DNA from: an uncultured Actinomycetota bacterium | Lineage (GTDB): Bacteria > Actinomycetota > Actinomycetes > Actinomycetales > CAVURS01 | Reading direction: 5' to 3' | Length of the DNA stretch: 64,000 bases | NCBI GenBank assembly: GCA_963795385.1 | Contig: CAWCHK010000012.1 | Coordinates: 2,443-66,442, forward strand | In this document: positions 36,428 to 51,987 of the stretch, one piece after another | How positions within the stretch are numbered: the stretch's first letter is position 1 | Layout of the letters: each line of letters begins with the position of its first letter | Made by a program: the position numbers and the translations under genes | The notes under the pieces: model-generated | Told to the model about the DNA's origin: nothing | What the model saw: the letters and a program-made list of their open reading frames with translations, nothing else | Databases searched by the model: none

Positions 36428-37098
36428 CGCCGCTGGCCCGGGACGCCCATGGCGATCGGGGCGTAGCGGGTCCGGTCGCGGCCGAGGCTGTGGGCCCAGT
36501 AGCGCTCGCCGTAGGACCAGTGCCACCACTCGGTCGGGTAGTTGACCAGGCCGACCGACGTCAGCACGTGACCGAGCACGCCGCGCAGCTCGCGGGCCTG
36601 GGCGCTGATGCCCCGGGACCCGGTGAAGCAGCGGTTGGCGCTGTCCTCGGGGCTGGCGTTGACGGGCGTACCGAGGTCGAGCTCCACCCCGTTGTCGTGG
36701 CAGAGCGTCAGGTCGACCGCGCCGCCGGTCTGGTGCGGAGCGACCTCCGGCGGCGCCACGAACTTGCTCGCCTCGACGTGGGATCGCGGGCCGTCCCAGT
36801 CCGGGTGCGCGGCGAGCAGCTCGCGTCGATAGTCCTCGAAGTACGCGCGCTGCAGGCTCGGCGGACGGTAGCCCTCGATGACCAGGAGCTGGAAGCCGCT
36901 GGGCAGCAACGACTCCGCGGCCACCAGGCGCTCGACGACGCCGGCCCGGAGGAGCCCGTAGCGGCCGTCGGCATCGGCGAGCCGCCGGTCGAACCGCAAC
37001 GCGTCTCGCGCGTCGACCATCGGTTCGCCACACTCCGCGGAGGCGATGCCCGCGATGCGCGGGTCGGACAGGAGGACAGGCCCGGTGGCGAGGGTCAT
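36409..37098 (-). CDS. D-Ala-D-Ala dipeptidase, M15 (VanX-like) metallopeptidase
   Basis: EGYRP, PHQTGGAVDLTL and EWWHWSYG zinc-ligand motifs. Confidence 0.88.
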   Translation of the reverse strand: MTLATGPVLLSDPRIAGIASAECGEPMVDARDALRFDRRLADADGRYGLLRAGVVERLVAAESLLPSGFQLLVIEGYRPPSLQRAYFEDYRRELLAAHPDWDGPRSHVEASKFVAPPEVAPHQTGGAVDLTLCHDNGVELDLGTPVNASPEDSANRCFTGSRGISAQARELRGVLGHVLTSVGLVNYPTEWWHWSYGERYWAHSLGRDRTRYAPIAMGVPGQRRWATGR

Positions 37099-38219
37099 CG
37101 GACACCCGCCAGGCCGCGCGCCGTGGCTGCGAGCCGATCGGCCCGGCGATCGGCCCGGACCCGCCGCTCCACCGCCAGGACCACCAGCCGGTCCAGCAGC
37201 TCGGCGTAGGAGACGCCACAGGCCTGCCAGACCTTGGGATACATCGAGTACGCCGTGAAGCCGGGCATCGTGTTGAGCTCGTTCACCACCAGCCGGTCGG
37301 CCCGCTCGTCGTAGAGGAAGTCGACCCGGGCGAGGCCCCACCCGCCGATGGCCCGGAAGGCGGCCACGGCCGCGTCCTGCACCCGGCGGGTGACCGGTGC
37401 GGGGAGGGCGGCGGGAACGGTCATCGGGTCCTGCGTCGACAGGTACTTCTGGGCGTAGTCGAACCAGCCGCCGGCCACCTGGACCTCACCGACCGCCGAG
37501 GCCTGAGGCGAGACCCCACCCAGCACACCGCATTCCAGCTCCCGAGCGCCGACCAGGCCCTCCTCGACGAGCGCGCTGGAGTCGTGCTGCAGCGCCAGGT
37601 CGACCGCCGCCGCGAGGTCGTCCGGGTCGCTGACGCGGGTGATGCCGATGGACGATCCGAGGCCGGCCGGCTTGACGAACCAGGGACGGCTGCAGCCGCG
37701 TGATCGCGCTCAGCCGTCCCGGGACCCAGCCCGGCCACCTCGTCGACGACGGCGAAGGGCATCACCTCCAGGCCGGCGGCCGACAGTGCTCGCTTGGTCG
37801 CGACCTTGTCCATCGCGGTGGCCGCCGCGAGGACGCCGGCGCCGACGTAGGCGAGCCCGAAGACCTCGAAAAGCCCCTGCAGCGAACCGTTCTCACCGTC
37901 GGAGCCATGCAGGACCGGGAAGGCGACGGTGAGGCTGGCGCAGGATCTCGGTGCTGACCTCCGGCCCGCGGACGGGTAGCTGGTCGGCCATGGCCGAGCC
38001 GCCGGCGGCGCGGTCGCCCGCGTCGCGGGCCCTTCGGACGTCGACATCCTGCAGGTGGTGCCACCGGCCGTCCCGCCCGATGCCGATGGCCACGACGGTG
38101 TAGCGCACCGGGTCCAGCTGCCGGACGACGGAGGCCGCGGACGCCCGCGACACGTCGTGCTCGGGCGACGCGCCGCCATAGAAGACGCCGACGACCTCGT
38201 GTCGCCGCAGCCCGCTCAC
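37095..38219 (-). CDS. ddl: D-alanine--D-alanine ligase family protein, apparent frameshifts
   Basis: YGGASPEHDVS, FPVLHG..GENG, MDK, FVKP..LGSSIG, WFDYAQKY and NELNTMPGFT spread over three frames (shifts near 37940 and 37680-37735). Confidence 0.82.
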
Positions 38220-39253
38220 GCCGGCTCTCCCGAGCGATCGAGAACGGTCCGGACCAGGGACGGGTCGACGTTCCCGCCCGACAGGAGCACGCCGATGTCG
38301 GCCCCATGCAGGCGCGAGTCGTCCCGGGCCAGGCGCAGGGCCACGGCGACGGCGGTGGCGGCGGACGGCTCGACCAGCTGTTCCGTGTCCTGCAGCGTGA
38401 CGGCGAGCGCGCCGGCGATCTCGGCCTCGGTCGCGACCCGGACGCGCGCGCCCCGCTCGCGGCAGATGCGGAACGGCAGGTCGCCGACCCGGTCCGGGCG
38501 AAGGCCGTCCGCGATGGTCGGCCGAGCCGTCACGGTCACCGGTTGGCCGGCCCACATCGCCTGCCGCAGCGAGTCCACCGCTGCCGGCTCCGCTCCGACC
38601 AGGTCGATGCCGGCGCCCTCGACGCCGCGGACGGACCGGAGCTCCCGATCGTGGTCGCGCACGGCGAGGCACGCGCCCGCCAGGGCGCTGCCGCCCCCGA
38701 CCGGCACCACGATCGCCGCCGGCCGCGCCCCGTCGGCCATCATCTGGTCCAGCAGCTCCGCGATCGCGGTGCCATGCCCTGCAACGACATCGGGATCCTC
38801 GTAGGGGTCGACCAGGTCCAGGCCCTGCGCGCCGGCGATCGCGGCCGCGACCCGTTGCCGCTCGGCCAGGCCGCCCCCCACGAGGACGACCTTGGCTCCG
38901 GTGGCCAGGATGCGCTCCGCCTTGCTCGGCACCACGTCGTGCGGCAGGACGGCCACGGCTCGACGCCTGAGCTCGGCCGCCGCCAGCGCGACCGCGATCG
39001 CGTGGTTGCCGGTGCTCTGCGCCACCAGCCCGCGGCTGCCACCGCGGGCCAGCCGGTCGGCGGCCAGCAGGGCACCGCGCAGCTTGAACGAGCCGCCCCG
39101 CTGGAGGTTCTCCGCCTTCAGCCACAGTCGCGCCCCGGCCCGCCGGTCAAGGCCGGCACTGCGCAGCACCGGGGTCAGGGTCACGCGTCCGGCCAGCCGT
39201 CTCTGGGCCGCCCGGACGCTCGCCGTACCGGGTTCTGGATGTGTCGTCGTCAT
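38216..39253 (-). CDS. PLP fold-II threonine/serine dehydratase or serine racemase family protein
   Basis: LKAENLQRGGSFKLRGA, STGNH, VPVGGG, TIADGL, LSGGN; no ACT domain. Confidence 0.85.
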   Translation of the reverse strand: MTTTHPEPGTASVRAAQRRLAGRVTLTPVLRSAGLDRRAGARLWLKAENLQRGGSFKLRGALLAADRLARGGSRGLVAQSTGNHAIAVALAAAELRRRAVAVLPHDVVPSKAERILATGAKVVLVGGGLAERQRVAAAIAGAQGLDLVDPYEDPDVVAGHGTAIAELLDQMMADGARPAAIVVPVGGGSALAGACLAVRDHDRELRSVRGVEGAGIDLVGAEPAAVDSLRQAMWAGQPVTVTARPTIADGLRPDRVGDLPFRICRERGARVRVATEAEIAGALAVTLQDTEQLVEPSAATAVAVALRLARDDSRLHGADIGVLLSGGNVDPSLVRTVLDRSGEPA

Positions 39254-39295
39254 GGCACCACGGTGGGCCGCGCCCGTCGCGATCGGGTCCGCGTC

Positions 39296-39314
39296 GTGTC
39301 ACAGCTGTGTCATA
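39296..39314. promoter_or_regulatory. OmpR-type direct repeat GTGTCACA-N3-GTGTCATA (GTCAC-N6-GTCAT)
   Basis: 11-bp-period direct repeat in the divergent promoter region. Confidence 0.6.
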
Positions 39315-39375
39315 GTCCGGCCGGCGACGCCTGCAGATGACCCGCCCGGGCCGCCCGCTGGCTCATACTCGGCCT

Positions 39376-40050
39376 GTGTCGCACGTGCTGCTGATCGAGG
39401 ACGACCCGGCGATCCGGGAGGGCCTCGAGCTCGGCCTGCGCCACCTGGGTCACAGCGTCTCGGCTGCGCCCGACGGCGAGTCGGGCCTGCGCGCGGCGGC
39501 CGAGGGGAGCCCCGACGTCGTCGTGCTCGACGTCATGCTCCCGGGGCTGGACGGCTTCGAGGTCTGCCGCCGCCTGCGGGCCACCGGGACGACGCCGATC
39601 ATCATGCTGACCGCCCGCTCCGACGACCTCGACGTCGTGGCCGGGCTGGAGGCGGGGGCCGACGACTACGTCGCCAAGCCGGTGCGGCCGCGGGTCCTGG
39701 ACGCCCGGATCAAGGCGGTGCTGCGACGGGTCAGCGCGGAGCCGTCGGCTCGCCACGAGTACGGCGATCTCGCGATCGACCGGTCGAGCATGGTCGTGAC
39801 CAAGGCGGGTACGCCGGTCGCGTTGACACCGACCGAGCTGCGCCTCCTGCTGGTGCTGTCCGGCCGCCCGGGCCAGGTGTTCTCGCGTGAGCAGCTGCTG
39901 TCGGCCGTCTGGGAGCAGGACTACCTCGGAGACTCGCGACTGGTCGACGCCAGCATCCAAAGGCTCCGGGCCAAGATCGAGGAGGTGCCGGCCCGCCCCG
40001 CCTTCCTGCAGACGGTTCGCGGGTTCGGCTACCGGTTCGGACCCCTGTGA
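39376..40050 (+). CDS. OmpR-family response regulator (MtrA/AfsQ1-like)
   Basis: IEDD, LDVMLPG, GADDYVAKP, QTVRGFGYRF. Confidence 0.92.
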   Translation: MSHVLLIEDDPAIREGLELGLRHLGHSVSAAPDGESGLRAAAEGSPDVVVLDVMLPGLDGFEVCRRLRATGTTPIIMLTARSDDLDVVAGLEAGADDYVAKPVRPRVLDARIKAVLRRVSAEPSARHEYGDLAIDRSSMVVTKAGTPVALTPTELRLLLVLSGRPGQVFSREQLLSAVWEQDYLGDSRLVDASIQRLRAKIEEVPARPAFLQTVRGFGYRFGPL

Positions 40051-41150
40051 ACGGCGGCCTGCGGTCGCGGCTGATCACGGGCTTCGTCGTGGTGACGGCC
40101 CTGACCGTCCTGATCTCCTCAGTGACGGCGGTCATCGGTGCGCTGTTCGTCTACACCACGCATCCGATCGGCTCGGCCGAGTTCGGCCGGAGGGTCCTGT
40201 CGACCTGGCCGTTCTCCTCGATGTCGGACCAGGACCTGGTCTGGGTGGTCGTGGTCGCCGGGCTGGGCCTGCTGGTCATCGCGGTGGGAGCGGGCTGGCT
40301 CGTGGCCCAGCGCATGCTCCGCCCGGTGCGGACGCTGGCCCAGGCGGCCGAGCAGGTCGCCCGGGGGGACCTGGCCGTGCGGCTGCGGCCGACCGGCAAC
40401 GACGAGCTGGCCCAGCTGGTCGCGACGTTCAACGCGATGACCTCCAACCTGGACCGGTCGATGAACGAGCTGCGGCGGATGGAGGCCCAGTCGCGGCGGT
40501 TCGCCTCGGACGTGTCGCACGAGCTGCGCAGCCCGCTCGCAGCGATGACCGCGGTGACCGAGGTCCTGTCGGACGAGGCGGCAGACATGTCCGGGCCGGC
40601 CGGGCAGGCCTCCCGGCTCGTGGTCCAGGAGATCGCGAACCTCGACCGCCTGGTCAACGACCTGATCGAGATCTCCCGGTTCGACGCGGGGACAGCGGTG
40701 CTCGACGTCGACGTCGTGACGGTCGCGTCCGCGGTACGCGCCTGCCTCGCCCTGCGCGGCTGGTCCGCGGCCGTGACGGTCGAGGTCCCGGAGGACCTCC
40801 AGGTCACCCTCGACCGGAGGCGGTTCGACGTGATCGTGGCCAACCTGGTCGGCAACGCGATGCGGTACGGCGAGCCGCCGGTGCAGGTGGCCGCCTGGTC
40901 GGTGCCGGATCGGGGCGAGGTCGTGCTGACCGTCGCCGACCACGGGCCGGGCATCGCCCAGGACGCCCTGCCGCATCTGTTCGAGCGGTTCTACAAGGCC
41001 GAGGCGGCGCGCACCCGGTCGGGCGGCAGCGGTTTGGGGCTGGCCATCGCCCTCGAGAACGCCCGGCTGCACGGCGGTGACCTCCTGGCGGCCAACCGCG
41101 TGGACGCGGCCGGTGCCGTGTTCACGTTGACGCTCCCGGCAGCGACCTGA
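40047..41150 (+). CDS. HAMP-domain sensor histidine kinase
   Basis: Two TMs with a short loop, HAMP, SHELRSPL, NLVGNA, DHGPG, GSGLGL. Confidence 0.92.
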   Translation: MNGGLRSRLITGFVVVTALTVLISSVTAVIGALFVYTTHPIGSAEFGRRVLSTWPFSSMSDQDLVWVVVVAGLGLLVIAVGAGWLVAQRMLRPVRTLAQAAEQVARGDLAVRLRPTGNDELAQLVATFNAMTSNLDRSMNELRRMEAQSRRFASDVSHELRSPLAAMTAVTEVLSDEAADMSGPAGQASRLVVQEIANLDRLVNDLIEISRFDAGTAVLDVDVVTVASAVRACLALRGWSAAVTVEVPEDLQVTLDRRRFDVIVANLVGNAMRYGEPPVQVAAWSVPDRGEVVLTVADHGPGIAQDALPHLFERFYKAEAARTRSGGSGLGLAIALENARLHGGDLLAANRVDAAGAVFTLTLPAAT

Positions 41151-41191
41151 CACGTCGACGTCGAGCGGCCGACGTGGAGATCGACGAGGCG

Positions 41192-41659
41192 TCAGGCCAA
41201 CGGGACGTCGAGGTGCATCCGCAGGCCGGCGCCGAACTCCGTGTCGGCGCTCCCGTCGACCACGAACCCCGCGGCCCGGTAGAACCCGAGCGCATGCTCG
41301 TTCGCCGTCACCTCGACCCGGGTGGCTCCTTCGGCAGCGGCCTGCGAAGCGATGGCCTGGATCAGGGCGCGGGCCACCCCTCGCCGCATCCACGCCGGCT
41401 CCACGAACAGGTCGTCCAGCTCGAGAGCGGTGCGGGTCGGCTGCGTGCTCGCGAAGCCGACGACGGTGCCGCCCGCCAGCGTCGCTACCCAGGCCCGCCC
41501 GCTGCCGGCCAGCTCCTCGGAGAGCTGGAGCGCCTCGGGGTGAGCGATCAGTGCAGCCCGGTCGCCGTCGTTGGACAGGGAGGCCCGGCGGAACACCCCT
41601 TCCATGGCCGGGGTGTCACCTGCTCTGGCGACCCGGACCTCGACCAGGCTCACCAGCAC
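41192..41659 (-). CDS. GNAT family N-acetyltransferase
   Basis: LFVEPAWMRRGVAR, N..ALGFY...GF. Confidence 0.85.
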   Translation of the reverse strand: MLVSLVEVRVARAGDTPAMEGVFRRASLSNDGDRAALIAHPEALQLSEELAGSGRAWVATLAGGTVVGFASTQPTRTALELDDLFVEPAWMRRGVARALIQAIASQAAAEGATRVEVTANEHALGFYRAAGFVVDGSADTEFGAGLRMHLDVPLA

Positions 41660-41741
41660 ACCCTAGTCCGCGCTACGAGACCCCAGCGTCTTCTCAGCGT
41701 CGACCCCGTGCTCGCGTGGACGACCTGTAGCCTGGGCCGAC

Positions 41742-41802
41742 GGCGGAGGGGCTCGCCGACAACCGCCGCGGCTGCTCGCCGGTCACGACCAACGGTCCCT
41801 AC
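41742..41802 (+). ncRNA. Fluoride (crcB) riboswitch, variant
   Basis: GGCGgaGGGGCtCGCC..AACCGC......ACCAACGGTCCCTAC follows the GGCGAUGG..UCGCC..AACCGC..GCUGAUGRC.CCUAC pattern; lies between a TAGCCT -10 and crcB. Confidence 0.7.
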
Positions 41803-41829
41803 CTCAACTGCGTGCCGGAGGTAGTCGAC

Positions 41830-42295
41830 GTGCCCGAACCGCGAGTGCCACGTGTACGCCTGGAGTGGGACCTCGTGCTCGCTGCGGCGGCCGGCGGTGT
41901 CGTCGGGGCCGAATCGCGTTACGGCGTGGGGCTTCTGGTGCCGCATACGCCGCGCCAGTTCCCCTGGTCGACGGTGGCTGATCAACGTCTCGGGCTGCCT
42001 GCTCATCGGCATCCTCATGGTCACGCTCCTCGAGCTCGCCACTCCCCACCGCCTGGCGCGGTCGTTCCTGGGCGTCGGCATCCTGGGCGGCTACACGACG
42101 TACTCGAGCTTCAGCGTCGACGCACAACGCCTTCTCCTGGCTCACCGGCCCGCCGTTGCGCTCGCCTACGTCGTCGTGACGGTGCTGGGCTGCGCGGCCG
42201 CGGTCTGGTTGTCCACCACCGCAACCACGGTGGCCGGCCGGGCCGTCATCGAGCGCCGGGTGAGGCGCCGCGGGAGTGGAGGGACGGCGCCGTGA
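41830..42295 (+). CDS. crcB: Fluoride channel Fluc/CrcB subunit 1, apparent +1 frameshift at ~41976
   Basis: GGVVGA..RY, FPWST/LINVSG, GILGGYTTYSSF. Confidence 0.82.
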
Positions 42296-42657
42296 CGATC
42301 CTGATGATCGCTCTCGGGGCCGCGGTGGGCGCACCCGCGCGGTATCTGAGCGACCGGGCGATCCAGTCCTGGCACCGGACCGTCTTCCCGTGGGGCACCC
42401 TGACCGTCAACGTCGTCGCCTCACTCGTCCTCGGCATCGTCGCGGGGGCGGGCTCGGCCCTGGACCCGGATCTCGCGATGCTGATCGGGACCGGCTTCTG
42501 CGGTGCACTGTCGACCTACTCGACGTTCAGCTACGAGACGCTGCGCCTGGCCCAGGGTGGCTTCCGGCTCTCGGCGGCGGCCAACGTGGGCATCTCGCTC
42601 GTCGCCGGCGTCGGCGCTGCTGCGCTGGGCTGGTCCGTGGGTGTCGCACTGACGTGA
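42292..42657 (+). CDS. crcB: Fluoride channel Fluc/CrcB subunit 2
   Basis: GAAVGAPARY, FPWGTLTVN, GFCGALSTYSTF..E. Confidence 0.9.
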   Translation: MTILMIALGAAVGAPARYLSDRAIQSWHRTVFPWGTLTVNVVASLVLGIVAGAGSALDPDLAMLIGTGFCGALSTYSTFSYETLRLAQGGFRLSAAANVGISLVAGVGAAALGWSVGVALT

Positions 42658-43827
42658 GCACCGCCGTGAGCAACGCCGTCGTGGTCGGGCGAGCCGCCCA
42701 TCATCCTCAGCATCGGGACGCCGCCGGAGCGCAGGAACCGGACCACGAGGGCGAGCGCCACCAGCAGGAAGACGATGTTCAGCACGGTCGTGTAGTTCCA
42801 GGTGACGCCGGTCTCGCCGACCTTGGCCGAGCGCTCGGTCGGGGACCAGCCCGAGACCGCCGAACACCAGCTCGACGACGTAGCCGGCGACGACCATGGT
42901 GGCGTAGAAGATGCCGAGCAGCACCAACATCATCCGGGTGCCGTAGTACTTCCGGTAGATCACCAGGATCGGGAGGATGATCAGGTCCGCGAAGACGAAG
43001 GACACCACGCCGCCGAAGCTGATGCCGCCGTTCCACAGCACGCCGGCCAGCGGCACGTTGCCGATCGAGCAGACGAAGCTCAGCACCGCGATGACCGGCC
43101 CGACGACGGGCCCCCAGACCTTGCTCGCGAGTGAGTGATCGGTGAGGAACACGTGCTGCCAGAAGGACTCGGGCACCCACGCCCCGACGGCGCCGGCGAT
43201 CAGCAGGCCGATGACGATGTCGCGAATCACCGCCGCCCACTCCATCACGAAGATGTGGCTGACCGCGGTGTAGCCGTCCCTGCTGCGCGAGTCGGCCCCG
43301 AGAAGCCGCCCTCGGACCGGATGGACATGTCCATCGCAGCGTGGCCCTCCATCGACCCGGCCAGTCCCCTGTCGGCCTGCTCGCGCGCCGCGTCGATCAG
43401 GCGCTCGCGGACGAAGATCCGGAAGGCGACCGCCAGCAACACGATCATGATCGGGCCGCCCACGAACTCGGCCAGGGTGAACTGCCAGCCGAGCAGCAGG
43501 GCCAGGATCACGCCCAGCTCGATCACCAGGTTGGTCGAGGCGATCTCGAAGACCATGGCCGAGGTGAAGCTCGCACCCTTGCGGAACAGCGAGCGGGCCA
43601 GGGCCACAGCGGCGTACGAGCACGAGGAGGATGAGGCGCCCAAACCCGTTGCTATCGCTAAGGTTCGCGGCCGATCGTCTCCCAGCAGCCGCGCCGATCG
43701 TCTCGCGGCGTACGACGGCCTGGATCACTGCCGACAGTGCGAAGCCCAGGATGAGTGACCAGGTGATCTGCCAGGTCATCGACCCAGCCACACCGAGCGC
43801 GTGGCCGAGCGCGTCGAGGACCGCCAC
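42531..43827 (-). CDS. ArsP/DUF318-type permease, three apparent frameshifts
   Basis: SSSCSYAAVA, ASTNLVIELG, SFVCSIGNVPL and FADLII motifs in alternating frames (shifts ~43695, ~43290, ~42840); 3' end uncertain because it overlaps crcB2. Confidence 0.75.
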
Positions 43828-43829
43828 GG

Positions 43830-44201
43830 TCAGTCCCCCTCGGGCGCGGCGATCGTCAGCAGCTGGCGCAGGCAGTGCTCGAGCAGCTGGTGGGGGAACT
43901 GGTCGCTGAGCCGGTAGAAGACGATCCGGCCCTCCTTGCGGAACCGCACCATCCCGGCCGTCCTCAGCAGCTTCAACGCGTACGACACCTGGTCCTCGTT
44001 GACGTCCAGCGCGAGCGCCAGGTCACCGACGCAGAGCTCCTCGGCCGCGACCAGGGCGAAGAGGACCCTGGAGCGCACCGGGTCGGCCAGCATCCCGAGC
44101 AGGCCCGCCAACCGCCCGGCGTCGTCGACCGACAGCAGGTCCGCCCGCGCCACGGCGACCCGGGTCGCGTCGACCGGGTGGTCGTGATCCAGCGGTGCCA
44201 T
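43830..44201 (-). CDS. ArsR/SmtB metal-sensing regulator
   Basis: N-terminal DHDHP, LADPVRSRVL, ELCVGDL, C-terminal EHC. Confidence 0.88.
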   Translation of the reverse strand: MAPLDHDHPVDATRVAVARADLLSVDDAGRLAGLLGMLADPVRSRVLFALVAAEELCVGDLALALDVNEDQVSYALKLLRTAGMVRFRKEGRIVFYRLSDQFPHQLLEHCLRQLLTIAAPEGD

Positions 44202-44207
44202 GCCGCC

Positions 44208-44267
44208 CTCCGCATCTCCGAATCTCCGGACTCGTAACCTCCGTATGATCGTACGGAGATACGGAGG
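44208..44267. promoter_or_regulatory. Repeated CTCCG(n)AT / TACGGAG elements, probable ArsR operator array
   Basis: ctccgcat-ctccgaat-ctccgga and the palindrome CTCCGTAtgatcgTACGGAG plus a further TACGGAG. Confidence 0.5.
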
Positions 44268-44272
44268 TCCGG

Positions 44273-45619
44273 TCAACGGCCGCCCCGGCGCACCTCCTCG
44301 AACCCTCCGTCGGGCCGGCGCACGAGCTGACCGGTCTCGTGTCCGTGCTCGGCGACGTCACGGTCCCGGTCCTGGAGACCGAGGCAGACGCCTCGGGTCA
44401 CGGCGTAGGCCAGGACCGGGCCGGCCACGAGAGCGACCCGGAGGATGTCGACCTGGGTCTCGAACGAGACGTGGAGGTGGGTCGCGATCACGTCGCTGCC
44501 CGCGGCCGCCCAGAGCGTTCCGTAGAAGACCAGACCGGCGACGCCGAGCGCCGTTCGATGCGGGGCGTCCCGCGGCCGGTCGAGGAGGTTGTGGTCCCGC
44601 CGGTCCCCGGTGATCCTCTCCTCGATGAACGGGTAGGCCACGATGACGGCCAGGAACAGGCCGACCACCACCATCGGCACGAGTACGGCGAGCGGCCAGG
44701 TCCCACCCGGCCCGGTGACCTCCCAGTGCGACGGCACCAGTCGCAGCGCCCCGTCGAGGAAGCTGGTGTACCAGTCGGGTTGGCCCCCGGCCGAGGCATC
44801 GGAGGGAGACGCCGGCCCGTTGAGCCAGACCGGCGCGACGGTCAGCGTCCCGGCCAGTCCGAACAGCAGGCCGACCGTCGCGAAGAACAGGCCGGCCGCT
44901 CGCACCGCTGCGCCGATCCAGGGCAGGCCCACCACGTTGTCCTCGGTCCGCCCGGGCCCGGCGAACTGGGCCGGCTCGTGCTGGGCCGCCAGCCTCATCC
45001 GCACCGCGATCACCAGGCCGAGCGCCAGCGGGACGAGGAGCACGTGCAACCAGTAGAGATGGGTGAGGATCCGGCTCGGGAACTCACCGCCGAAGAGCCA
45101 CCCGGTGAGCAGCCGGCCGACGAACGGGAAGCCGATCGTGATGCCCTCGACGATGCGCTGCCCGGTCCCGGCGAGCGTGTCGTCGGGCAGCCCGTAGCCG
45201 CTCCAGCCCGCCGCCAGGGCGAGGACGAAGATGACGCCGAGCAGCACCCACACCCAGCGCCGCGGGCGCCGGAAGCCACCGGTGAAGAAGGCGCTGAGCA
45301 TCTGCAGCATCAGGGACGCCAGCAGGGTCAGGGCCGCCCAGTGGTGGGCCTGGCGCATCAGCAGTCCCGCACGCAGGTCGAAGGAGATCCGCAGGGTCGA
45401 TGCGTACGCCCTCGACATCTCGACGCCCCGGAGCGGGGCGTAGCTGCCGTGATAGATGATCCGGTCGTTCGAGGGGTCGTAGTAGAGCAGCAGGTAGACA
45501 CCGGTGACGACGAGGACGGCCAGGCAGGCCGCGGACACCGTGCCGAGCAGGAACGTCCAGTGGACGGGGACCGCCCTCGCTTCGAGACGACGCCGCAGCC
45601 GTCCCAGCCTCGTCCGCAC
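44273..45619 (-). CDS. Stand-alone cytochrome b (QcrB) paralogue, degenerate heme bH site
   Basis: P.HWTFLLG, RQAHHWAA, FFTGGFRRPR, GY.LPDD, QPDWY, YPFIEER.TGD...HNLLDRPRDAP; start 45619 (GGAGG RBS) or 45628. Confidence 0.88.
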   Translation of the reverse strand: MRTRLGRLRRRLEARAVPVHWTFLLGTVSAACLAVLVVTGVYLLLYYDPSNDRIIYHGSYAPLRGVEMSRAYASTLRISFDLRAGLLMRQAHHWAALTLLASLMLQMLSAFFTGGFRRPRRWVWVLLGVIFVLALAAGWSGYGLPDDTLAGTGQRIVEGITIGFPFVGRLLTGWLFGGEFPSRILTHLYWLHVLLVPLALGLVIAVRMRLAAQHEPAQFAGPGRTEDNVVGLPWIGAAVRAAGLFFATVGLLFGLAGTLTVAPVWLNGPASPSDASAGGQPDWYTSFLDGALRLVPSHWEVTGPGGTWPLAVLVPMVVVGLFLAVIVAYPFIEERITGDRRDHNLLDRPRDAPHRTALGVAGLVFYGTLWAAAGSDVIATHLHVSFETQVDILRVALVAGPVLAYAVTRGVCLGLQDRDRDVAEHGHETGQLVRRPDGGFEEVRRGGR

Positions 45620-45660
45620 GACCGTCACCTCCCGAGTTCACGAACGTCTCTCACCCTGTA

Positions 45661-45687
45661 GACGAGACAGCCCGGCCGGACGTGACA
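45661..45687 (-). promoter_or_regulatory. ECF41-type promoter TGTCACG-N16-CGTC
   Basis: 16-nt spacing and near-exact match to the TGTCACA-N16-CGTC ECF41 consensus, upstream of the qcrB paralogue. Confidence 0.6.
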
Positions 45688-45729
45688 TCGGCGATTCCCT
45701 CCAGGCTCGGTCGACCCAAACGACACGGC

Positions 45730-46396
45730 TCAGACGCGAGAGGCCCGGACCAGCGCGGGGAGGTCGGCCATGTCGTCCATCAAGGTGGTCTCGGGACCGC
45801 GGAGCCGGTCGGCGGGGACCAGGCCCGTGACGTAGGCGATCGAGCGCATCCCGGCCGCGCGCGCCGCCGCCAGCCCGGGGGGCGAGTCCTCGACGACCAG
45901 GCACCGATCGGGGGGCACCCCCATGACCGCGGCGGCGTGCAGGAACAGGTCCGGCGCGGGCTTGCCACGCTCGACGTCCTGCGCGCTGAACCGGCGCCCC
46001 TCGAACGCCTCGGCCAGCCCGACCCGGCCCAGGTTCTTGACGACCTTCGCGTGCGACCCGTTGGACGCGACGGCATGCTCCACGCCGAGCGCGGTGATGG
46101 CCGCGATGGCGTCCGCCACCCCCGGGACCGCCTCGAGCTCGGTCGAGAAGGCGTCCTCGTACCAGCTCTCGTACGGCTCGTCCCAGCCGTCCTCGAGCGC
46201 GCCGCCCGAGCTCGGCCTCGACCGCCGCTCGCCAGTAGTCGTCGGTGCACCCGGCGAAGCGGTCGATCAGCACCTCCGGAGTCACCGCCCATCCGAGGTC
46301 GGTCAGCACCGCCGCTCCGACCCGGGCCGCGATCGGCTCGGAGTCGACCAGCACCCCGTCGCAGTCGAAGATCACCAGACTGATGTCGTCGCGCAT
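45730..46396 (-). CDS. HAD-family phosphatase, apparent frameshift at ~46200
   Basis: FDCDGVLVDSE in one frame; VASNG, KPAPD and VEDS..G in another. Confidence 0.8.
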
Positions 46397-46419
46397 CGCT
46401 TCCCTTCCATCCTTGGGGC

Positions 46420-47613
46420 TCACGGTGACGGCACCACGAGGGCCGCCAGGATCATCGACGCGGCGGACACCGCGATCGTCTCGTGCACGCCGACCCGGCC
46501 GACCAGCACCCCGCCCAGGACGGCGCCGACGCCACCCCCGACCAGGAAGCCCGTCGTCAGCCAGCTGTAGGCCTCGTTGCGCCGGCGGACCGGTACGGCG
46601 GCCGCCAACCGCTCGAACAGCACGGCCAGCGTGGGCGCGATGACCAGCCCGCCGACGAAGAGCACCGGTGGCATCAGCTCCGGCCGCGGGACGCCGACGA
46701 GCACGAGCATGTGGAGTGAGACGCCGAACACGAGCAGTCGCAACGGGATTCGCCTCCGCGGCGCCAGCCCGAACAGCAGGCCGCCGGTCATCGAACCCCC
46801 GGCCCACAGGGCGAGCAGGACCGCACCTGGCACGGCCGATCCGCGGGCCGCTGCAAGAACGGCCAGGTTGGCCGCGGCGAACGCCGTGTCGAAGAGCGCT
46901 GCCGTCAGGACGAACCGGGCCAGCAGCAGACGGGTACGGCGGCCGTCGCGAGCCACCGGCTCGACGCCCGGCGCGTCCGGCATCGCGTGCTCGCCGTCGT
47001 ACACCCGGTGGTCGTCCGGTCCGTCGTCCACCGGCGCCCGGCCCCGAGCGGCCCCGAGGAACGCGAGGGTGCCGCCGGCCCCGACCGCGCCCGTGCCGGC
47101 GACGCCGGCGGAGGGGTACGACGTGGCGGCGAGGCCGGCGGCGAACGGCGGCCCGAGGACGAAGACGAGCTCCATCAAGGTCGTGTCGAGGACCAGGCCC
47201 TGCTGTCGCACCCCCGGCGGCACCAGCTCGAGCAGGGCCGCCCGGCCGGCTGCGCTCAGCGGTGGGAGCGTGCAGCCGGACAGGACGGCGGGCCCGACGG
47301 CGAGGGCGAGCGGGTGGTCGAGCAGGGCGACGAGCAGGGCGCAGCTGACGGCGAAGCCGATGCCCAGTGGCAGCAGGACCCGTTCGCGGCCCTGCCGGTC
47401 GAGCAGCCGGCCGACCATCGGCTGGGCGACGGCCGCCCCGGCGGCGTGCGCCCCGCTGAGGACGCCAGCGCGCGCGTAGGTCCCCCCGTCACCGGTGACC
47501 GCAAGGACGATCGCCACCGTCATCATCGCCGACGGCAGCCGCCCGAGGAGCACGGTGCCGAGGACGGCCGGCACGCGCGGTACCCGGAGGAGCGAGCCGT
47601 ACGAGCCGGTCAC
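46420..47613 (-). CDS. MFS transporter
   Basis: GRLLDRQGR motif A, multiple TMs; GTGA coupling. Confidence 0.82.
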   Translation of the reverse strand: MTGSYGSLLRVPRVPAVLGTVLLGRLPSAMMTVAIVLAVTGDGGTYARAGVLSGAHAAGAAVAQPMVGRLLDRQGRERVLLPLGIGFAVSCALLVALLDHPLALAVGPAVLSGCTLPPLSAAGRAALLELVPPGVRQQGLVLDTTLMELVFVLGPPFAAGLAATSYPSAGVAGTGAVGAGGTLAFLGAARGRAPVDDGPDDHRVYDGEHAMPDAPGVEPVARDGRRTRLLLARFVLTAALFDTAFAAANLAVLAAARGSAVPGAVLLALWAGGSMTGGLLFGLAPRRRIPLRLLVFGVSLHMLVLVGVPRPELMPPVLFVGGLVIAPTLAVLFERLAAAVPVRRRNEAYSWLTTGFLVGGGVGAVLGGVLVGRVGVHETIAVSAASMILAALVVPSP

Positions 47614-48863
47614 GACGCCGCCCGGACGGCGGCCGTCCCCGGGGCGCCGGACAGCCGTCGCTCCTGAGCCGGCGCGAGGCCGGCGCGGACCGCTGCGCAA
47701 CCGAGACCGGCCACGGCACAGCCGATCCAGAGGGCGCGCGCGCCCAGCCGGTCCAGGACCGCGCCACCAGCTGCGGGGCCGAGGACCAGGGCGATGCTCC
47801 ACGTGGAGGCGAAGGCACCGAGATACCGCCCGGTCTGGCCGGCAGGAGCCAGGTCCGCACTCACCGACATCGCCACCGGCGCGTTGACGACCTCTCCGAG
47901 GGTCCAGATGACGACCGTGCCGGCGTAGGCGACCCAGGTGTGCGCGAGGGCCGTGGCGCCGAAGCCCACGGCGTTGAGCGCGGCGGCGATCACGAGGGAC
48001 CACGAGCGGGGCCGCCGGGCCAGCCGGGTCGCGGCGGGCATCTGCACCAGCAGCAGCAGGGCTCCGTTGAGACTGAGCAGCAGCCCGAACTGCGTCGCGG
48101 ACAGACCGTCGTCGTGCGTCACCACCGGCAACGTGACGGTGCACTGGACGTAGACCATCTGGAACACCAGGTTCGTCGCCAGGAACAGGAGGTACGCCGG
48201 GTCGGTGACCGGGCCGCGCCGGGCCTCGTCCTCCGGACCGGCCGGCGCCGCGGCGGCTCCCGGGTGTCGTGGCAGACGCCGCCACACGATCAGCGCCGCG
48301 AGGGCCAGCCCGGCCGCCTGCGCGACGAAGAGCGCGCCGAACCGCCAGGCCGAGAGCAGCCCCGCGAGCAGCGGCGCGAGGGCGTACCCGAGGTTGACCA
48401 TCCAGTAGTTCAGGGCGAAGCCGTGCAGCCGGGCCGGCTGCGGGACGAGGGCCGCCAGCAACGCGCTGCTCGCCGGCCCGATCGCGTTGAGGGCGGCGCC
48501 GAGTGCGACCAGCGTGACCACGACGGCGCCCCGTTGGTGCGCGAGCCCCAGGACGAGGGTGCTCAGCCCGGCGGCGGCCAGCGCGCAGAGCAGGGTCCGC
48601 TGCGCGCCGACCCGGTCGGCCACGGCGCCGGAGGCGAGGACCGCCGCGAACCCACCCGCGCCGTACGCCGCGAGGGCGGCCGACGACGCGCCCAGTGACC
48701 ACCCGAGGTGGCGGGTGAGCAGGATCATCAGGAACGGCACCAGCAGGCGGCTGGACCAGACGACGAGAGTGGCAAGGGAGAGCCACCAGAAGGCTTGCGG
48801 CAGAGGGCGATCCGGGTCCGGCTGCAACCGCCTGAGGGCGGTCCGCCCGAGCTGGTCCACCAC
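47610..48863 (-). CDS. MFS transporter
   Basis: GAVADRVGAQR motif A, about 12 TMs. Confidence 0.88.
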   Translation of the reverse strand: MVDQLGRTALRRLQPDPDRPLPQAFWWLSLATLVVWSSRLLVPFLMILLTRHLGWSLGASSAALAAYGAGGFAAVLASGAVADRVGAQRTLLCALAAAGLSTLVLGLAHQRGAVVVTLVALGAALNAIGPASSALLAALVPQPARLHGFALNYWMVNLGYALAPLLAGLLSAWRFGALFVAQAAGLALAALIVWRRLPRHPGAAAAPAGPEDEARRGPVTDPAYLLFLATNLVFQMVYVQCTVTLPVVTHDDGLSATQFGLLLSLNGALLLLVQMPAATRLARRPRSWSLVIAAALNAVGFGATALAHTWVAYAGTVVIWTLGEVVNAPVAMSVSADLAPAGQTGRYLGAFASTWSIALVLGPAAGGAVLDRLGARALWIGCAVAGLGCAAVRAGLAPAQERRLSGAPGTAAVRAAS

Positions 48864-48898
48864 CACTCCCCTGCGCCTCGGGCCTTTCGGGTTCAGAG

Positions 48899-48936
48899 TG
48901 AGAACGTTCCCACTCACCGTCCTGAGAACGATCCCA
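48899..48936. promoter_or_regulatory. Pair of LacI-type operators TGAGAACGTTCCCA / TGAGAACGATCCCA
   Basis: Central-CG palindromes at 48899-48912 and 48923-48936. Confidence 0.75.
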
Positions 48937-48979
48937 CCGGAGGCCGGTCACGGTCAAGCGGTGCGGTACATTCGGCGCC

Positions 48980-50077
48980 ATGTCGACGCCGGTGCGAGGT
49001 CATGGCGTCGCCACGATCCACGACGTCGCTCGGGCCGCGGGGGTCTCCCGGTCCACTGCGTCACGCGCACTCGCGGGCTACGGCGTCGTCAGCAAGGAGG
49101 CCGCCGAGCGGGTCCAGGCCGCCGCCGCGACCCTCGGCTACCGGGCGAACGGCGTGGCCCGGTCGATGAAGACCGGGCGGTCCAACACGCTCGGGGCGGT
49201 CGTCGCCGACATCGAGAACGCGTTCTTCGCCCGGGCCATGCGCGGATTCACGGATGTGGCGCGGGCCAACGGCTTCCAGGTGATCCTGACGAACACGGAC
49301 GAGGACCCGGCCCTGGAGGCGTCGGCCGTCCGGGTCTTCCAGGAGCGCCGGGTGGACGGCATCGTCGTGACGGCGGCGTCCCTGGACGAGGGCGGTCACC
49401 TGAGGGCCGCTCACGACGCCGGCGTCCCGATCGTCCTGCTCGACCGCCGCGTCCCGGGCCTGCCGGCCGACGTGGTCCACATCGACAACGTCAGCGCGGC
49501 CCGGGAGACGACCGGACACCTGATCGCGGCCGGCCACCGCAAGATCGCCATGGTCACCGGCGTCACGCACGTGGAGATGGCCATCGAGCCGTTGAACGCA
49601 CCACCGGGCGTCTCGACCAGCCGGGACCGGCTGGAGGGCTATCGCCAGGCCCTGGCCGCGGCGGGCATCGAGTTCCGCTGGGACTACGTGCGCACCGCCG
49701 ACTTCCACCTGACGGCAGCCCGTCGCGAGGTCGAGCGGCTGCTGCGGATGCGGGACCGCCCGACGGCCGTGTTCGCGACCGACAGCACCAACGCTCTGGG
49801 CGTGCTGCTCGCCCTGCGCGACGTCGGCCTCGAAGCGCCGGACGACGTCTCCGTCGTGGCCTTCGACGACGCGGACTGGGCCGACGTGGTCGAGCCGGGC
49901 CTCAGCGTGATGGCGCAGCCGGTCTACGAGATGGGCCGGCTCGCCGCCTCCCGGCTCGTGGCCCGGGTCAACGGCGAGTCGCTGCGCCCCAAGGACCACG
50001 TGCTCGCCACCGAGTGGCTCTCCCGGGACTCGGTGGGCCCGCCACCCCGCCGCCGCCGTCGCGTCCTCCCCACGTGA
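48980..50077 (+). CDS. LacI family transcriptional regulator
   Basis: TIHDVARAAGVSRSTASRAL, YRANGVARS, sugar-binding domain. Confidence 0.92.
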   Translation: MSTPVRGHGVATIHDVARAAGVSRSTASRALAGYGVVSKEAAERVQAAAATLGYRANGVARSMKTGRSNTLGAVVADIENAFFARAMRGFTDVARANGFQVILTNTDEDPALEASAVRVFQERRVDGIVVTAASLDEGGHLRAAHDAGVPIVLLDRRVPGLPADVVHIDNVSAARETTGHLIAAGHRKIAMVTGVTHVEMAIEPLNAPPGVSTSRDRLEGYRQALAAAGIEFRWDYVRTADFHLTAARREVERLLRMRDRPTAVFATDSTNALGVLLALRDVGLEAPDDVSVVAFDDADWADVVEPGLSVMAQPVYEMGRLAASRLVARVNGESLRPKDHVLATEWLSRDSVGPPPRRRRRVLPT

Positions 50078-50107
50078 CGGTGACCTCCGCGGCTGCCAGT
50101 CGCCGGT

Positions 50108-51010
50108 CTACTTGCCGATGCCGTCGGTGAGGCCGCGCAGGAACTGGCGCTGACCGATGAGGAAGAGGGCGATCATCGGCAGTGCGGCCATGGTCAGCCC
50201 GGCGAACTGCACCGGCCAGTTCGTGAGGAGTCGGCTCTGCATGTCGACCAGGCCGACCGGCAGTGTCTTGAGGTTGCCGCTGCTGATGAAGACCAGCGCG
50301 AAGACGAACTCGTTCCACGCGAACAGCGCCTGCAGCAACGCCGCCGAGACCATGATCGGGCGGCACATCGGCAGGATGACCCGCCAGAAGATCTGGGCGC
50401 GGGAGGCACCGTCGATGATGGCCGCCTCGTCGACGTCCGGTGGCAGGTCGACCATGTACGCCCGGATCAGGAAGGTCGTGAACGGGATCCGGAACGCCGT
50501 GTAGAGCACGATGAGCGCCCAGTACGTGTTGTAGATGTGCAGCTGCTGCAGCAGCCCGAACAGCGGCACGAGGGCGACCGTCGGCGCGAGCATGAGGCCG
50601 CCGAGCAGGAAGAGCATGATCGGGCCGGCGAGCGGAACCTTCACCCGCACCAGCCCGTACGCCGCCCAGGCGCTCAGGAGCGTCGTCGTGAGGATCGAGG
50701 CAGCGGTGACGATCACGCTGTTCGTGAAGTAGCGCACGACGCCGGCGTTCCCGGCCGCCACGAAGTTGTGCCAGCGCAGGTGCGAGGGCAGACCCCAGGG
50801 CCGGCCGAAGACCTCGCTGTTGTCCTTGAAGCTGCTGAACACCATCCACAGCAGGGGGTAGATCACGATGACGGCCAGGGCGGCGAGGACCACCCAGATC
50901 AGCACCCGGCTCGCGATCTGCCCGAAGCGCAGGCCGGAGCGGTTGGGCCGCACGGTCGTGGTGGTCGGGCGTCTGGTCGCCGACCGGTCTGTACGGGCGA
51001 TGTCGGTCAC
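50108..51010 (-). CDS. Carbohydrate ABC transporter permease (MalG-like)
   Basis: DEAAIIDGAS, AWNEF, TLPVGL. Confidence 0.9.
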   Translation of the reverse strand: MTDIARTDRSATRRPTTTTVRPNRSGLRFGQIASRVLIWVVLAALAVIVIYPLLWMVFSSFKDNSEVFGRPWGLPSHLRWHNFVAAGNAGVVRYFTNSVIVTAASILTTTLLSAWAAYGLVRVKVPLAGPIMLFLLGGLMLAPTVALVPLFGLLQQLHIYNTYWALIVLYTAFRIPFTTFLIRAYMVDLPPDVDEAAIIDGASRAQIFWRVILPMCRPIMVSAALLQALFAWNEFVFALVFISSGNLKTLPVGLVDMQSRLLTNWPVQFAGLTMAALPMIALFLIGQRQFLRGLTDGIGK

Positions 51011-51894
51011 CACTGCACCCTCCGCCGGCGTGTATAGACGATCTGGGCGGCCGAGATGACGAAGGTGATGACGAAGATCACCGTCGCGATCGCCGCGGCG
51101 TATCCCATGTCGTCCTGCAGGAACGCGTTCTGATAGAGCCAGGTCCCGAGGACCTGGCTGGAGTTCGACGGACCGCCCCCGGTCATGACGACGACCTCGT
51201 TGAACACGAGGAAGGCGCCGGACAGCGTGAGGATCATGACCAGCGTCGTCATCTCCCGCAGCAGCGGGATGGTGATCGAGAAGAACACCCGGACACCGGA
51301 GGCGCCGTCGACCCTGGCGGCCTCGTACAGCTCCTTGGGGATCCGCTGGATCGCGACGATGAACAGCACTGCGGTGTAACCGATCGACTGCCACTGGCTC
51401 ATGCCGATGACCGCGAAGATCGAGGTGTGCGGGTTCCCCAGCCAGTCCTGCTGGAGCGACCCCAGCCCGACGGCACCGAGGGCCCGGTTCAACAGCCCGA
51501 TCTGCGGGTTGTAGAGGAACGAGAAGAGGATGCCGGCCACGGTGATCGAGATGGTGGCCGGGATGAAGTAGATCGTCCGCAGGATCCCCCGCAGGCGGTC
51601 GTGGACGACCTCCTCCAGGACCGCCGCGAGCACCAGGGCGCCACCGACCTGGAAGACGATCGAGATCAGGGCGTAGAGGATGTTGTTGACCAGCGCCCGG
51701 CGGAACACCGCGTCGCCGAAGGCCGTCGTGTAGTTGTCCAGCCCCACGAACGCCGCGCGCGGCGAGAAGGCGCTCCAGGAGTAGAAGCTGAGCCGGATGT
51801 TGTCGACGATCGGGTAGTAGACGAAGACGCCCAGCAGGACGACCGCAGGCAGCACCCACACCCAGGTCCGCCAACGCCTCAGGGTGTGTGTCAT
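51007..51894 (-). CDS. Carbohydrate ABC transporter permease (MalF-like)
   Basis: VGLDNY, LYEAARVDGAS, MTGGGP, GYAAA. Confidence 0.9.
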   Translation of the reverse strand: MTHTLRRWRTWVWVLPAVVLLGVFVYYPIVDNIRLSFYSWSAFSPRAAFVGLDNYTTAFGDAVFRRALVNNILYALISIVFQVGGALVLAAVLEEVVHDRLRGILRTIYFIPATISITVAGILFSFLYNPQIGLLNRALGAVGLGSLQQDWLGNPHTSIFAVIGMSQWQSIGYTAVLFIVAIQRIPKELYEAARVDGASGVRVFFSITIPLLREMTTLVMILTLSGAFLVFNEVVVMTGGGPSNSSQVLGTWLYQNAFLQDDMGYAAAIATVIFVITFVISAAQIVYTRRRRVQW

Positions 51895-51932
51895 GCGTCC
51901 TCCACTCGCCGTGCTCCTCGGTGCGGCCGGCC

Positions 51933-51964
51933 GGCCGGCCCGGGACTCGGTCCCGGAGCCGGCC
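51933..51964 (-). other. Intercistronic stem-loop after the solute-binding gene
   Basis: GGCCGGC-CCGGGAC-tcg-GTCCCGG-a-GCCGGCC. Confidence 0.5.
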
Positions 51965-51987
51965 AGCCCCTGCTGACCGGAGATGGG

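Follow-up and report, generated by a model that had tools for sequence, protein, structure and literature searches.

The 64,000-nucleotide stretch of contig CAWCHK010000012.1 analysed here, referred to throughout as the window, comes from an uncultured Actinomycetota bacterium and carries on its minus strand a gene for a paralogue of QcrB, which is the cytochrome b component in the actinobacterial bcc complex (complex III). The protein keeps both histidine ligands of heme bL and an intact motif of the quinol oxidation (Qo) site, while both histidine ligands of heme bH are replaced. Because cytochrome b is assumed to hold all four of its heme histidines without exception, the paralogue family is annotated as ordinary QcrB. 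The family is a conserved, misannotated QcrB variant, and its regulatory context, an association with extracytoplasmic function sigma factors of group ECF41, is new relative to the literature searched. The protein is very probably a bL-only, ECF41-linked QcrB lacking the quinone reduction (Qi) site, which is the common ground of the three leading readings of its role. Among these, tentative preference is given to an inducible bL-only subunit with an altered Qo site that would probably dimerise with a normal QcrB and hand electrons over to it.

A QcrB paralogue without heme bH ligands

Residue frequencies were obtained by comparing 153 non-duplicate family rows, made up of the query, 119 hits taken without selection, and loci chosen because they show the pattern, with 120 operon-linked QcrB proteins. 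The gene and its heme-ligand positions are as follows.

44273..45619, minus strand: coding sequence of the bH-less QcrB paralogue, 448 amino acids, GTG start, open frame
45628..45632, minus strand: GGAGG, likely ribosome-binding site of the GTG at 45619, read off the sequence
45344..45346, minus strand: CAC, His92, helix-B heme bL ligand, kept (His in 99% of family rows)
45302..45304, minus strand: CAG, Gln106, replacing the bH histidine of helix B (family rows: Gln 93%, His 6%)
45044..45046, minus strand: CAC, His192, helix-D heme bL ligand, kept (153/153 family rows)
44999..45001, minus strand: CGG, Arg207, replacing the helix-D bH histidine (Arg 97%, His 1% of family rows)

The database record is also 448 amino acids long, and a second in-frame GTG is present at 45628, beyond the assigned start. 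The protein scores 527 bits on the actinobacterial QcrB profile NCBIfam NF050120 (cut-off 500), so databases name it ordinary QcrB. Its predicted structure (mean predicted local distance difference test score, pLDDT, 81.8) has the eight-helix QcrB fold, with a template modelling (TM) score of 0.89 to Corynebacterium glutamicum QcrB (7q21_B) at 46% identity.

The four ligand codons and an intact QPDWY motif, both read in the open reading frame, agree with the original prediction made from the sequence of this locus. Alignment with solved C. glutamicum and mycobacterial QcrB confirms the retained bL histidines and the loss of both bH histidines, placing Gln106 and Arg207 on His117 and His219 of C. 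glutamicum, with no other histidine at the bH positions. Nor does the comparison of the 153 family rows with the 120 operon-linked proteins reveal another family-specific conserved histidine that could substitute for them. The protein thus appears to bind heme bL only, and on its sequence a protomer with a Qo site and bL but without bH would be unable to run a Q cycle by itself, in line with the earlier proposal of a mono-heme cytochrome b incapable of a Q cycle within one protomer.

Sequencing error as the cause of bH loss was ruled out, since the same pattern runs across the family. The original prediction had argued the same from the loss of both ligands, one needing two base changes, in an otherwise intact frame; the base-change argument is weak, because one change is enough to turn histidine into arginine if the codon is CGC, as it is in 13 of 37 family genes. 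The family evidence rather than the codon excludes error, which matters because neighbouring genes in the assembly carry frameshifts.

Remodelling of the inner heme site and retention of the outer half

Functional residues were taken from the C. glutamicum structure paper, as far as its available text describes them (PMC8795186). The positions concerned are listed below.

45539..45541, minus strand: Thr27, in the position of Glu38, the C. glutamicum Qi-site ligand (Glu 0% in the family, 100% in operon QcrB)
45293..45295, minus strand: Ser109, replacing the arginine three residues past the bH histidine (Arg 1% in the family, 100% in operon QcrB)
45239..45241, minus strand: Leu127, replacing the helix-C glycine, Gly138 of C. 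glutamicum (Leu 99% in the family, Gly 100% in operon QcrB)
45194..45205, minus strand: Trp139-Ser140-Gly141-Tyr142, where Tyr142 is the invariant Qo Tyr153
44768..44779, minus strand: Qo motif PDWY; Pro281 and Asp282, equivalent to Pro294 and Asp295 of C. glutamicum, are invariant (153/153)
44741..44755, minus strand: Asp289 and Arg293 of the proton-exit path Ex1 (Asp302 and Arg306), both 153/153
44492..44494, minus strand: Asp376, final Ex1 residue (Asp387), 153/153

Residues kept at 99-100% of the family rows comprise G40, R89, H92, G141, Y142, H192, P281, D282, D289, R293, and D376. All 120 operon-encoded QcrB proteins keep four histidines (HHHH, ligands in chain order). Losses on the inner side of the family proteins involve E27, H106, R109, G127, H207, and the Lys-His-Thr segment 215-217 after helix D (His216 0%, Thr217 2%). 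The arginine at position 109 is presumably the partner of a bH propionate. Leu127 would fill the bH pocket; heme-accommodating glycines of cytochrome b are placed in helices 1 and 3 by PMC5600118. The proton-entry residue Lys253 of C. glutamicum corresponds to Arg240 in the paralogue, and the family carries arginine in 90% and lysine in 10% of rows. Judged by these residues, remodelling has affected the inner heme site, and the outer Qo half is held.

Newly fixed residues include Trp139 and Ser140 (100%), directly ahead of the Qo tyrosine, and Pro100 (97%), which is leucine in the window copy; Cys32 is conserved in 88% of rows. Trp139 replaces a phenylalanine (Phe150 of C. glutamicum) three residues before the Qo tyrosine, with tryptophan in 100% of the family and phenylalanine in 93% of operon QcrB. 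This position aligns with Rhodobacter F144, likewise three residues before Y147, which is described as one of the quinone-tail contacts and whose change to arginine inactivates Qo (PMC4152375, PMC7908018). According to PMC8795186, the Ex1 path starts at the Rieske ligand His355 and continues via Asp302, Arg306, and Asp387. The invariance of Ex1 suggests that the paralogue works with the Rieske subunit QcrA, since the path begins at the Rieske ligand.

Family, phylogeny and selection

The similarity search with the paralogue returned 2088 hits, of which the best 120, not chosen for the trait, were listed. Among the query and its 119 best hits, the ligand positions read HQHR in 107, HHHR in eight, and five single variants in the remainder, with HHHH in none, which goes far beyond chance; Nocardioides, Agromyces, Leifsonia, Microbacterium, and Auraticoccus are among the genera named for the hits. 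When the two bH columns were taken out, a mixture-model tree of 41 proteins recovered the bH-less clade with support of 100/99; a quick tree of 104 rows was also built. Together with partly degraded relatives (HHHY, HHHR, HHHI), the clade nests beside operon QcrB of Microbacteriaceae (100/98) and away from the QcrB of the window's own genome. This placement rules out duplication of the genome's own qcrB and suggests that the gene was likely acquired sideways.

The ratio of nonsynonymous to synonymous substitution rates (dN/dS, Nei-Gojobori) for 65 family pairs of 70-99.5% identity ranged from 0.11 to 0.40, with a median of 0.26, although synonymous divergence saturates in GC-rich DNA, which inflates the values of distant pairs. 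For the window gene and its congener at locus L153 the ratio was 0.26. The tree and the selection analysis that the original prediction had proposed as a check both support a conserved clade under purifying selection, and random decay among homologues was not seen, given 107 HQHR rows among the best 120 of 2088 hits. A pseudogene was ruled out by the same ratios. In 37 genes, Gln106 is encoded by both glutamine codons and Arg207 by four arginine codons.

The distribution of the family is patchy. A bH-defective paralogue occurs in at least 26 of 301 genomes of taxonomic family f7 (24 of the window's clade and two of HHHY type) and in three of 121 genomes of f27; across the class, six of 401 genomes pass the paralogue score threshold, and among 301 genomes drawn across the phylum the window's genome is the sole carrier. 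In relatives, position 207 is also leucine, glutamine, tyrosine, isoleucine, cysteine, or alanine. None of the conclusions depends on genomes G178, G061, G107, and G147, which are unpublished.

Several relatives were recorded as side observations. Stand-alone QcrB relatives L155 (G022:C3), P0122, and P0128 have lost the Qo tyrosine, the PD motif, and the bH ligands while keeping both bL histidines; L155 retains an ECF41-type promoter. The long-branch relatives P0126, P0129, and P0130 (HQHR, HGHW, and HLHT, respectively) fall outside the main clade in the quick tree and, their placement being unsure, possibly represent more independent bH losses. The 740-amino-acid record P0011 has an alpha/beta hydrolase domain ahead of a bH-less QcrB, either a fusion or a read-through of two neighbouring module genes.

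A predicted ECF41 promoter and recurrent gene neighbourhood

Upstream of the gene, one promoter is predicted.

45661..45687, minus strand: predicted ECF41 (SigJ-type) promoter, TGTCACG-16 nt-CGTC, 42-68 nt upstream of the paralogue and the sole strict match in the 64 kb window

The site differs by one mismatch from the published ECF41 consensus TGTCACA-n16-CGTC (PMC3426412). The genome has 21 occurrences of the strict pattern, a frequency similar to that of spacer-shifted controls (25, 25, and 26), so a single site is no proof alone; the weight of the promoter rests on its position and its recurrence across loci. The strict pattern was found in five of 37 family loci. Gibbs sampling upstream of the type II NADH dehydrogenase (NDH-2)-like and short-chain dehydrogenase/reductase (SDR) genes described below recovered the -35 element without prior. 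In 31 of the 37 family loci a relaxed pattern precedes the unit's first gene, a post hoc count, as the pattern was chosen after the Gibbs result, against 37 of 1920 background windows; its absence from 66 operon loci is no fair promoter control, because the upstream DNA there is qcrA. A closely similar site precedes an SDR-sigJ pair of the window genome (G000:C7:32797), so that a sigma factor that could read the paralogue's promoter is present in the genome. Induction of the paralogue by a factor of group ECF41 is predicted.

The window genome has one other qcrB, with four histidines, in a ctaE-qcrC-qcrA-qcrB operon on contig C3, and it encodes cytochrome bd. Searches (tblastn) with the genome's own QcrA and QcrC gave no match in window positions 37000-53000, bearing out the earlier remark that neither gene lies near the paralogue. 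The term orphan, also used earlier, holds for the missing qcrA and qcrC; it does not hold for the ECF41-type promoter, nor for the family's recurrence beside ECF41 sigma, NmrA/SDR, and NDH-2-like genes.

For the 37 family loci, most fetched flanks were 6-7 kb, with five shorter on one side; the loci are not independent draws, as three genomes give two loci each and several genera repeat. Within these flanks qcrA or qcrC was found in none of the 37, compared with qcrA in 93 of 97 HHHH loci, and no second cytochrome b was matched. An operon-linked QcrB is also present in 12 of 13 genomes checked, one of the 12 being frameshifted; the exception, G750, showed the paralogue only.

A SigJ-type ECF41 sigma gene lies within about 7 kb in 21 of the 37 family loci, an NmrA/SDR protein gene stands beside the paralogue in 16, and an NDH-2-like gene is directly upstream and co-oriented in 15 (13 full length, two remnants), each against none of 69 operon loci. 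In most of the 15 loci with an NDH-2-like gene, its stop codon overlaps a candidate start of the paralogue. The best solved relatives of the NDH-2-like protein are type II NADH dehydrogenases, and its family is far larger than the bH-less clade (7922 hits of 7999 candidates at 1e-80). Complex prediction for the paralogue and its NDH-2-like neighbour (locus L230) scored 0.00 and, as controls were not folded, counts neither way. Other recurrent neighbours, again absent from the 69 operon loci, comprise two sets of alpha/beta hydrolases (nine and seven loci), SnoaL-like domains (seven), and an SdhA-like flavoprotein (four). ECF41 sigma genes of the window genome are located at C7:33834 and C7:201846, with none in window positions 37000-53000.

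The promoter motif and the neighbour genes resemble the known ECF41 regulon, in which NmrA/epimerase and Pyr_redox oxidoreductase genes are published COE-type targets (PMC3426412). In contrast to the paralogue, the published targets include no cytochrome: the word is absent from the available text and supplement of PMC3426412, and none is named in the available ECF41 entry of PMC7826278. ECF41 factors have been tied to oxidative stress and possibly to ligand sensing via the SnoaL domain (PMC5766207, PMC7826278), and the available text of PMC3426412 gives the inducing signal as unknown.

Two further gene types recur in these regions. A SdhA/NadB-like flavoprotein of about 580 amino acids, 80% identical between genera, occurs at L205:8870-10618, L212, L226:3125-4852, and L237:7265-8995; no iron-sulfur or anchor subunit was recognised alongside, though none was searched for, and the protein falls below every NCBIfam cut-off, broad ones included. 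Small proteins that stand alone and look like SigJ's SnoaL-like C-terminal domain recur by the sigma gene (L211:2008-2430, L207, L210, and L222) and are possible separate modulators of ECF41 activity.

A parallel lineage in Streptomyces

Streptomyces coelicolor has two stand-alone QcrB paralogues, QcrB2 (SCO7120) and QcrB3 (SCO7236), in the account of PMC7931247, the available text of which does not contain the word histidine. Orthologues of both were located by published primer sites in genome G543, whose sequence is the one read here; the QcrB2 site is an exact match, the QcrB3 site has one mismatch, and five of six primer-site matches had no qcrB alongside. QcrB2 resembles the window paralogue in being stand-alone, and its G543 orthologue reads HHHY, carries an ECF41-type promoter, and has an NDH-2-like gene, three SigJ-like genes, an SDR gene, and an SdhA-like gene within 19 kb. 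One of these sigma genes starts like SCO7112 of the ECF41 table in PMC3426412.

QcrB2 orthologues are present in 22 of 251 genomes of the genus Streptomyces, and the relaxed promoter lies within 360 bases in 21 of 24 QcrB2-lineage loci. Two further loci were added for the ligand counts. A bH ligand is lost in eight of these 26 genes (to Tyr, Arg, Cys, or Asn, with one count giving five residue types), requiring five changes on the tree, of which at least two are forced by well-supported branches. Both bL histidines, the Qo residues, and leucine at position 139 are present in 26/26. Unlike the window's clade, 18 of the 26 keep four histidines and 23 keep the Qi glutamate. The lineage descends from Streptomyces QcrB (100/98) and forms a clade separate from that of the window; a single origin of both was rejected narrowly, at a borderline approximately unbiased test value (p-AU 0.043). 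On its sequences, the QcrB2 lineage is a separately derived parallel case.

Identity of the window paralogue with QcrB3 was rejected, as the QcrB3 orthologue (L233) is HHHH and branches apart. QcrB3 is likewise stand-alone and, as reported in PMC7931247, co-purifies with bcc-aa3 subunits in spores, indicating that the product of an unlinked qcrB can join shared subunits; it differs in that the G543 orthologue keeps the glutamate along with its four histidines and has no ECF41-type promoter. A third Streptomyces stand-alone type (L148, L150, L151) was also observed, with four histidines, the glutamate, and Leu139, and no ECF41-type promoter.

Comparison with known systems

The paralogue shares with actinobacterial QcrB of bcc-aa3 complexes (7q21_B and 7qhm_B of C. 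glutamicum, 6adq_B of Mycobacterium smegmatis) the fold, the bL ligands, the Qo motif, Tyr153, and Ex1. It differs from them in lacking the bH ligands and Glu38, in the changes of Lys253 to arginine, Gly138 to leucine, and Phe150 to tryptophan, and in lying outside the qcrCAB operon with an ECF41-type promoter.

In Rhodobacter, the symmetric bH knock-out H212N is reported not to support growth, whereas engineered dimers whose one protomer has a dead Qo site and whose second protomer lacks bH do so via a bL-bL bridge (PMC4152375). These heterodimers resemble the paralogue in that one protomer has Qo and bL without bH and is active by bL-bL transfer; unlike it, they are laboratory-made, use ubiquinone and a mobile Rieske domain, and have one histidine changed in a pocket that is not remodelled. 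For C. glutamicum, the bL-bL distance is stated to be one that may allow inter-protomer transfer (PMC8795186).

Natural losses have been described elsewhere: the fourth histidine is missing in Pyrobaculum cytochrome b (PMC4122944), and cyanobacterial subfamily K has glutamate or glutamine for the helix-2 histidine and lacks a bH-accommodating glycine (PMC5600118). Both differ from the paralogue in phylum and architecture, in the loss of one ligand, and in that the available texts report no link to a sigma factor. PMC4122944, a large survey, took out histidine-less sequences ahead of its analysis, and a bH-less QcrB clade would thereby have been filtered out. A full-text literature search, with most subscription journals outside its scope, yielded no published description of a bH-less actinobacterial QcrB or of a cytochrome b under ECF41 control.

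Proposed mechanism and alternative explanations

In the mechanism tentatively favoured, the paralogue would be switched on by an ECF41 sigma factor and would bind heme bL only, its bH pocket being filled by the glutamine, the arginine, and the glycine-to-leucine change. QcrA and QcrC would likely be borrowed from the housekeeping operon, with a normal QcrB as the probable dimer partner; the invariance of Ex1 implies a QcrA partner, which must come from the housekeeping operon, and 12 of the 13 genomes checked have one. Menaquinol would be oxidised at the remodelled Qo site, one electron passing to the Rieske cluster and the second moving from the paralogue's bL to the bL, bH, and Qi site of the partner, so that the mixed dimer could still run a Q cycle. 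Selection would favour the altered Qo half, for example for tolerance of a Qo-binding compound or under redox stress, and the inner half would be redundant and hence lost more than once. The fall of losses on the inner side, with Qo and Ex1 kept, supports this reading. In the QcrB2 lineage, the Qo change and promoter are found throughout and bH loss is sporadic and varied, suggesting that bH became redundant after the Qo change rather than that uncoupling was selected. Of the functions offered by the original prediction, an alternative bcc subunit fits best, given the invariant proton-exit residues, and a decoy or sensor is less likely for the clade.

Several observations weigh against the mixed-dimer proposal. 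In the N-terminal and helix-A segment 15-33, nine of 13 residues conserved in operon QcrB are lost, which could impair pairing, and the homodimers that would arise under strong induction are dead in the Rhodobacter model. The five closest family pairs have dN/dS of 0.11-0.20, compared with 0.01-0.10 for the closest operon QcrB pairs, and the maintenance of Gln106 and Arg207 across synonymous codons may point to a positive role rather than mere redundancy. The sisters L155, P0122, and P0128 indicate that some members of the wider group do without a catalytic Qo site. The link of position 139 to Qo inhibitors is one that we assume, and the literature search yielded no direct paper on it. None of the recurrent neighbour genes, such as ECF41 sigma or NDH-2, stands beside the window copy. 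Tagged S. coelicolor QcrB2 gave no shift of the Nar1 complex, unlike QcrB3, according to PMC7931247, so that QcrB2 could be a protein that is not incorporated; that paper also describes a tagged qcrB2 plasmid, which thus already exists for S. coelicolor. Mixed-dimer formation, assembly with QcrA, and one-heme content are deduced from sequence and analogy.

A less probable explanation is an uncoupled bypass, in which homodimers assemble with QcrA, QcrC, and the aa3 oxidase and both quinol electrons reach the Rieske cluster, with bL acting as a one-electron buffer in a short circuit. Combined with a co-transcribed, non-pumping NDH-2, this would give a less-coupled chain from NADH to oxygen, by our estimate moving about 2 rather than 3 H+ per electron, that sheds reducing power under stress. 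The co-oriented NDH-2-like gene (15 of 37 loci against 0 of 69), with its overlapping stop codon and type II NADH dehydrogenase relatives, fits such a chain, as do the pocket substitutions fixed in the clade and the reported link of ECF41 factors to oxidative stress (PMC5766207, PMC7826278). The actinobacterial Rieske domain is described as fixed at Qo (PMC8795186), and arrest of the Rieske domain at Qo is the stated exception to superoxide release under b-chain block (PMC7908018). However, in Rhodobacter the symmetric loss of bH leaves no activity in vivo (PMC4152375), 18 of 26 Streptomyces QcrB2-lineage genes keep four histidines under the same promoter type, and a low-coupling oxidase, cytochrome bd, is already encoded in the genome. 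The size of the NDH-2-like family further suggests an ECF41-region gene in its own right, and no NDH-2 accompanies the window copy. Unlikely, and somewhat less probable than the bypass, is a non-catalytic damper, sensor, or decoy that binds quinone or a Qo-type compound, or occupies QcrA and QcrC, and so slows respiration or makes a redox signal. Such a role would suit the sisters that lost their Qo catalytic residues and kept both bL histidines, and the invariant bulky Trp139 could block the Qo site; b-chain block is reported to raise superoxide in bc1 complexes (PMC9162462, PMC7908018), and QcrB2 behaves unlike QcrB3 in spores (PMC7931247). It leaves unexplained the three Ex1 residues and Tyr142, Pro281, and Asp282, all 153/153, which a mere binder would not need.

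It is highly improbable that a second heme is bound without the two histidines, via the arginine, the glutamine, or Cys32, allowing the protein a modified Q cycle on its own. The conservation of Gln106, Arg207, and Cys32 (88%) is compatible with this, and a Rhodobacter His-to-Lys revertant of a bH ligand is reported to keep a working heme (PMC4807273); against it, both histidines are gone together with the Qi glutamate, Arg109, and Gly127 (leucine in 99%), and position 207 varies in relatives. Hardly tenable is the view, largely refuted by dN/dS and residue conservation, that the gene is a dispensable copy in slow decay, carried by a mobile ECF41 cassette. Its patchy spread across f7, f27, and the phylum and its relaxed selection relative to operon QcrB would agree with decay, as would the finding that the window gene is no duplicate of its own genome's QcrB; yet dN/dS is 0.11-0.40 in 65/65 pairs, frames are open with invariant catalytic residues across proteins just 50-75% identical, Trp139, Ser140, and Leu127 are newly invariant, and the promoter is kept in 31 of 37 loci.

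Returning to the mixed-dimer proposal, a broader and still more tentative formulation is that, at least twice in Actinobacteria, a stress-inducible, half-functional complex III subunit may have arisen under ECF41 control, with a rebuilt Qo site and no inner heme, working solely by electron hand-over across the dimer to the housekeeping QcrB. Together with the co-transcribed NDH-2 and the SdhA-like flavoprotein, it would form an alternative set of respiratory subunits, giving ECF41 factors a defined output. If the mixed dimer is real, it lets one ask in a natural system whether cells depend on electrons crossing between the two halves of complex III, a question so far argued from engineered constructs; if the bypass is correct, the family provides a naturally occurring complex III that runs no Q cycle. 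Either reading links ECF41 sigma factors to respiration.

Neighbouring genes and further observations

A functional link to the direct neighbours of the window gene (HAD phosphatase, ArsR regulator, ArsP permease, and CrcB-like genes) was rejected, as none recurs in at least three of 42 loci. The GC profile shows no clear island at the paralogue gene. An ArsR/SmtB regulator gene (window 43830-44276) follows the paralogue, ahead of the ArsP permease, and has a sigma-70-like site of its own (44276-44248), which overlaps the stop codon of qcrB; ArsR and ArsP form a metal or metalloid resistance unit unrelated to the paralogue.

Reading-frame splits affect two CrcB-like genes, the ArsP permease, and the HAD phosphatase (window 41812-42657, 42600-43860, and 45730-46400), and qcrB copies are also frame-split in several assemblies of the same genus and order. 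These splits are likely assembly indel errors rather than pseudogenes.

Duplicate four-histidine qcrB genes were observed in two other genomes: G752 has two in tandem in one operon region (L232, G752:C1:418000-434000), and G128 has two copies (L152 and L129). Elsewhere in the window, positions 36409-39253 hold what we take to be a D-Ala-D-Ala dipeptidase-like open reading frame and a frameshifted D-Ala-D-Ala ligase-like one, labels assigned from the sequence, along with a pyridoxal phosphate enzyme, adjoining a two-component system.

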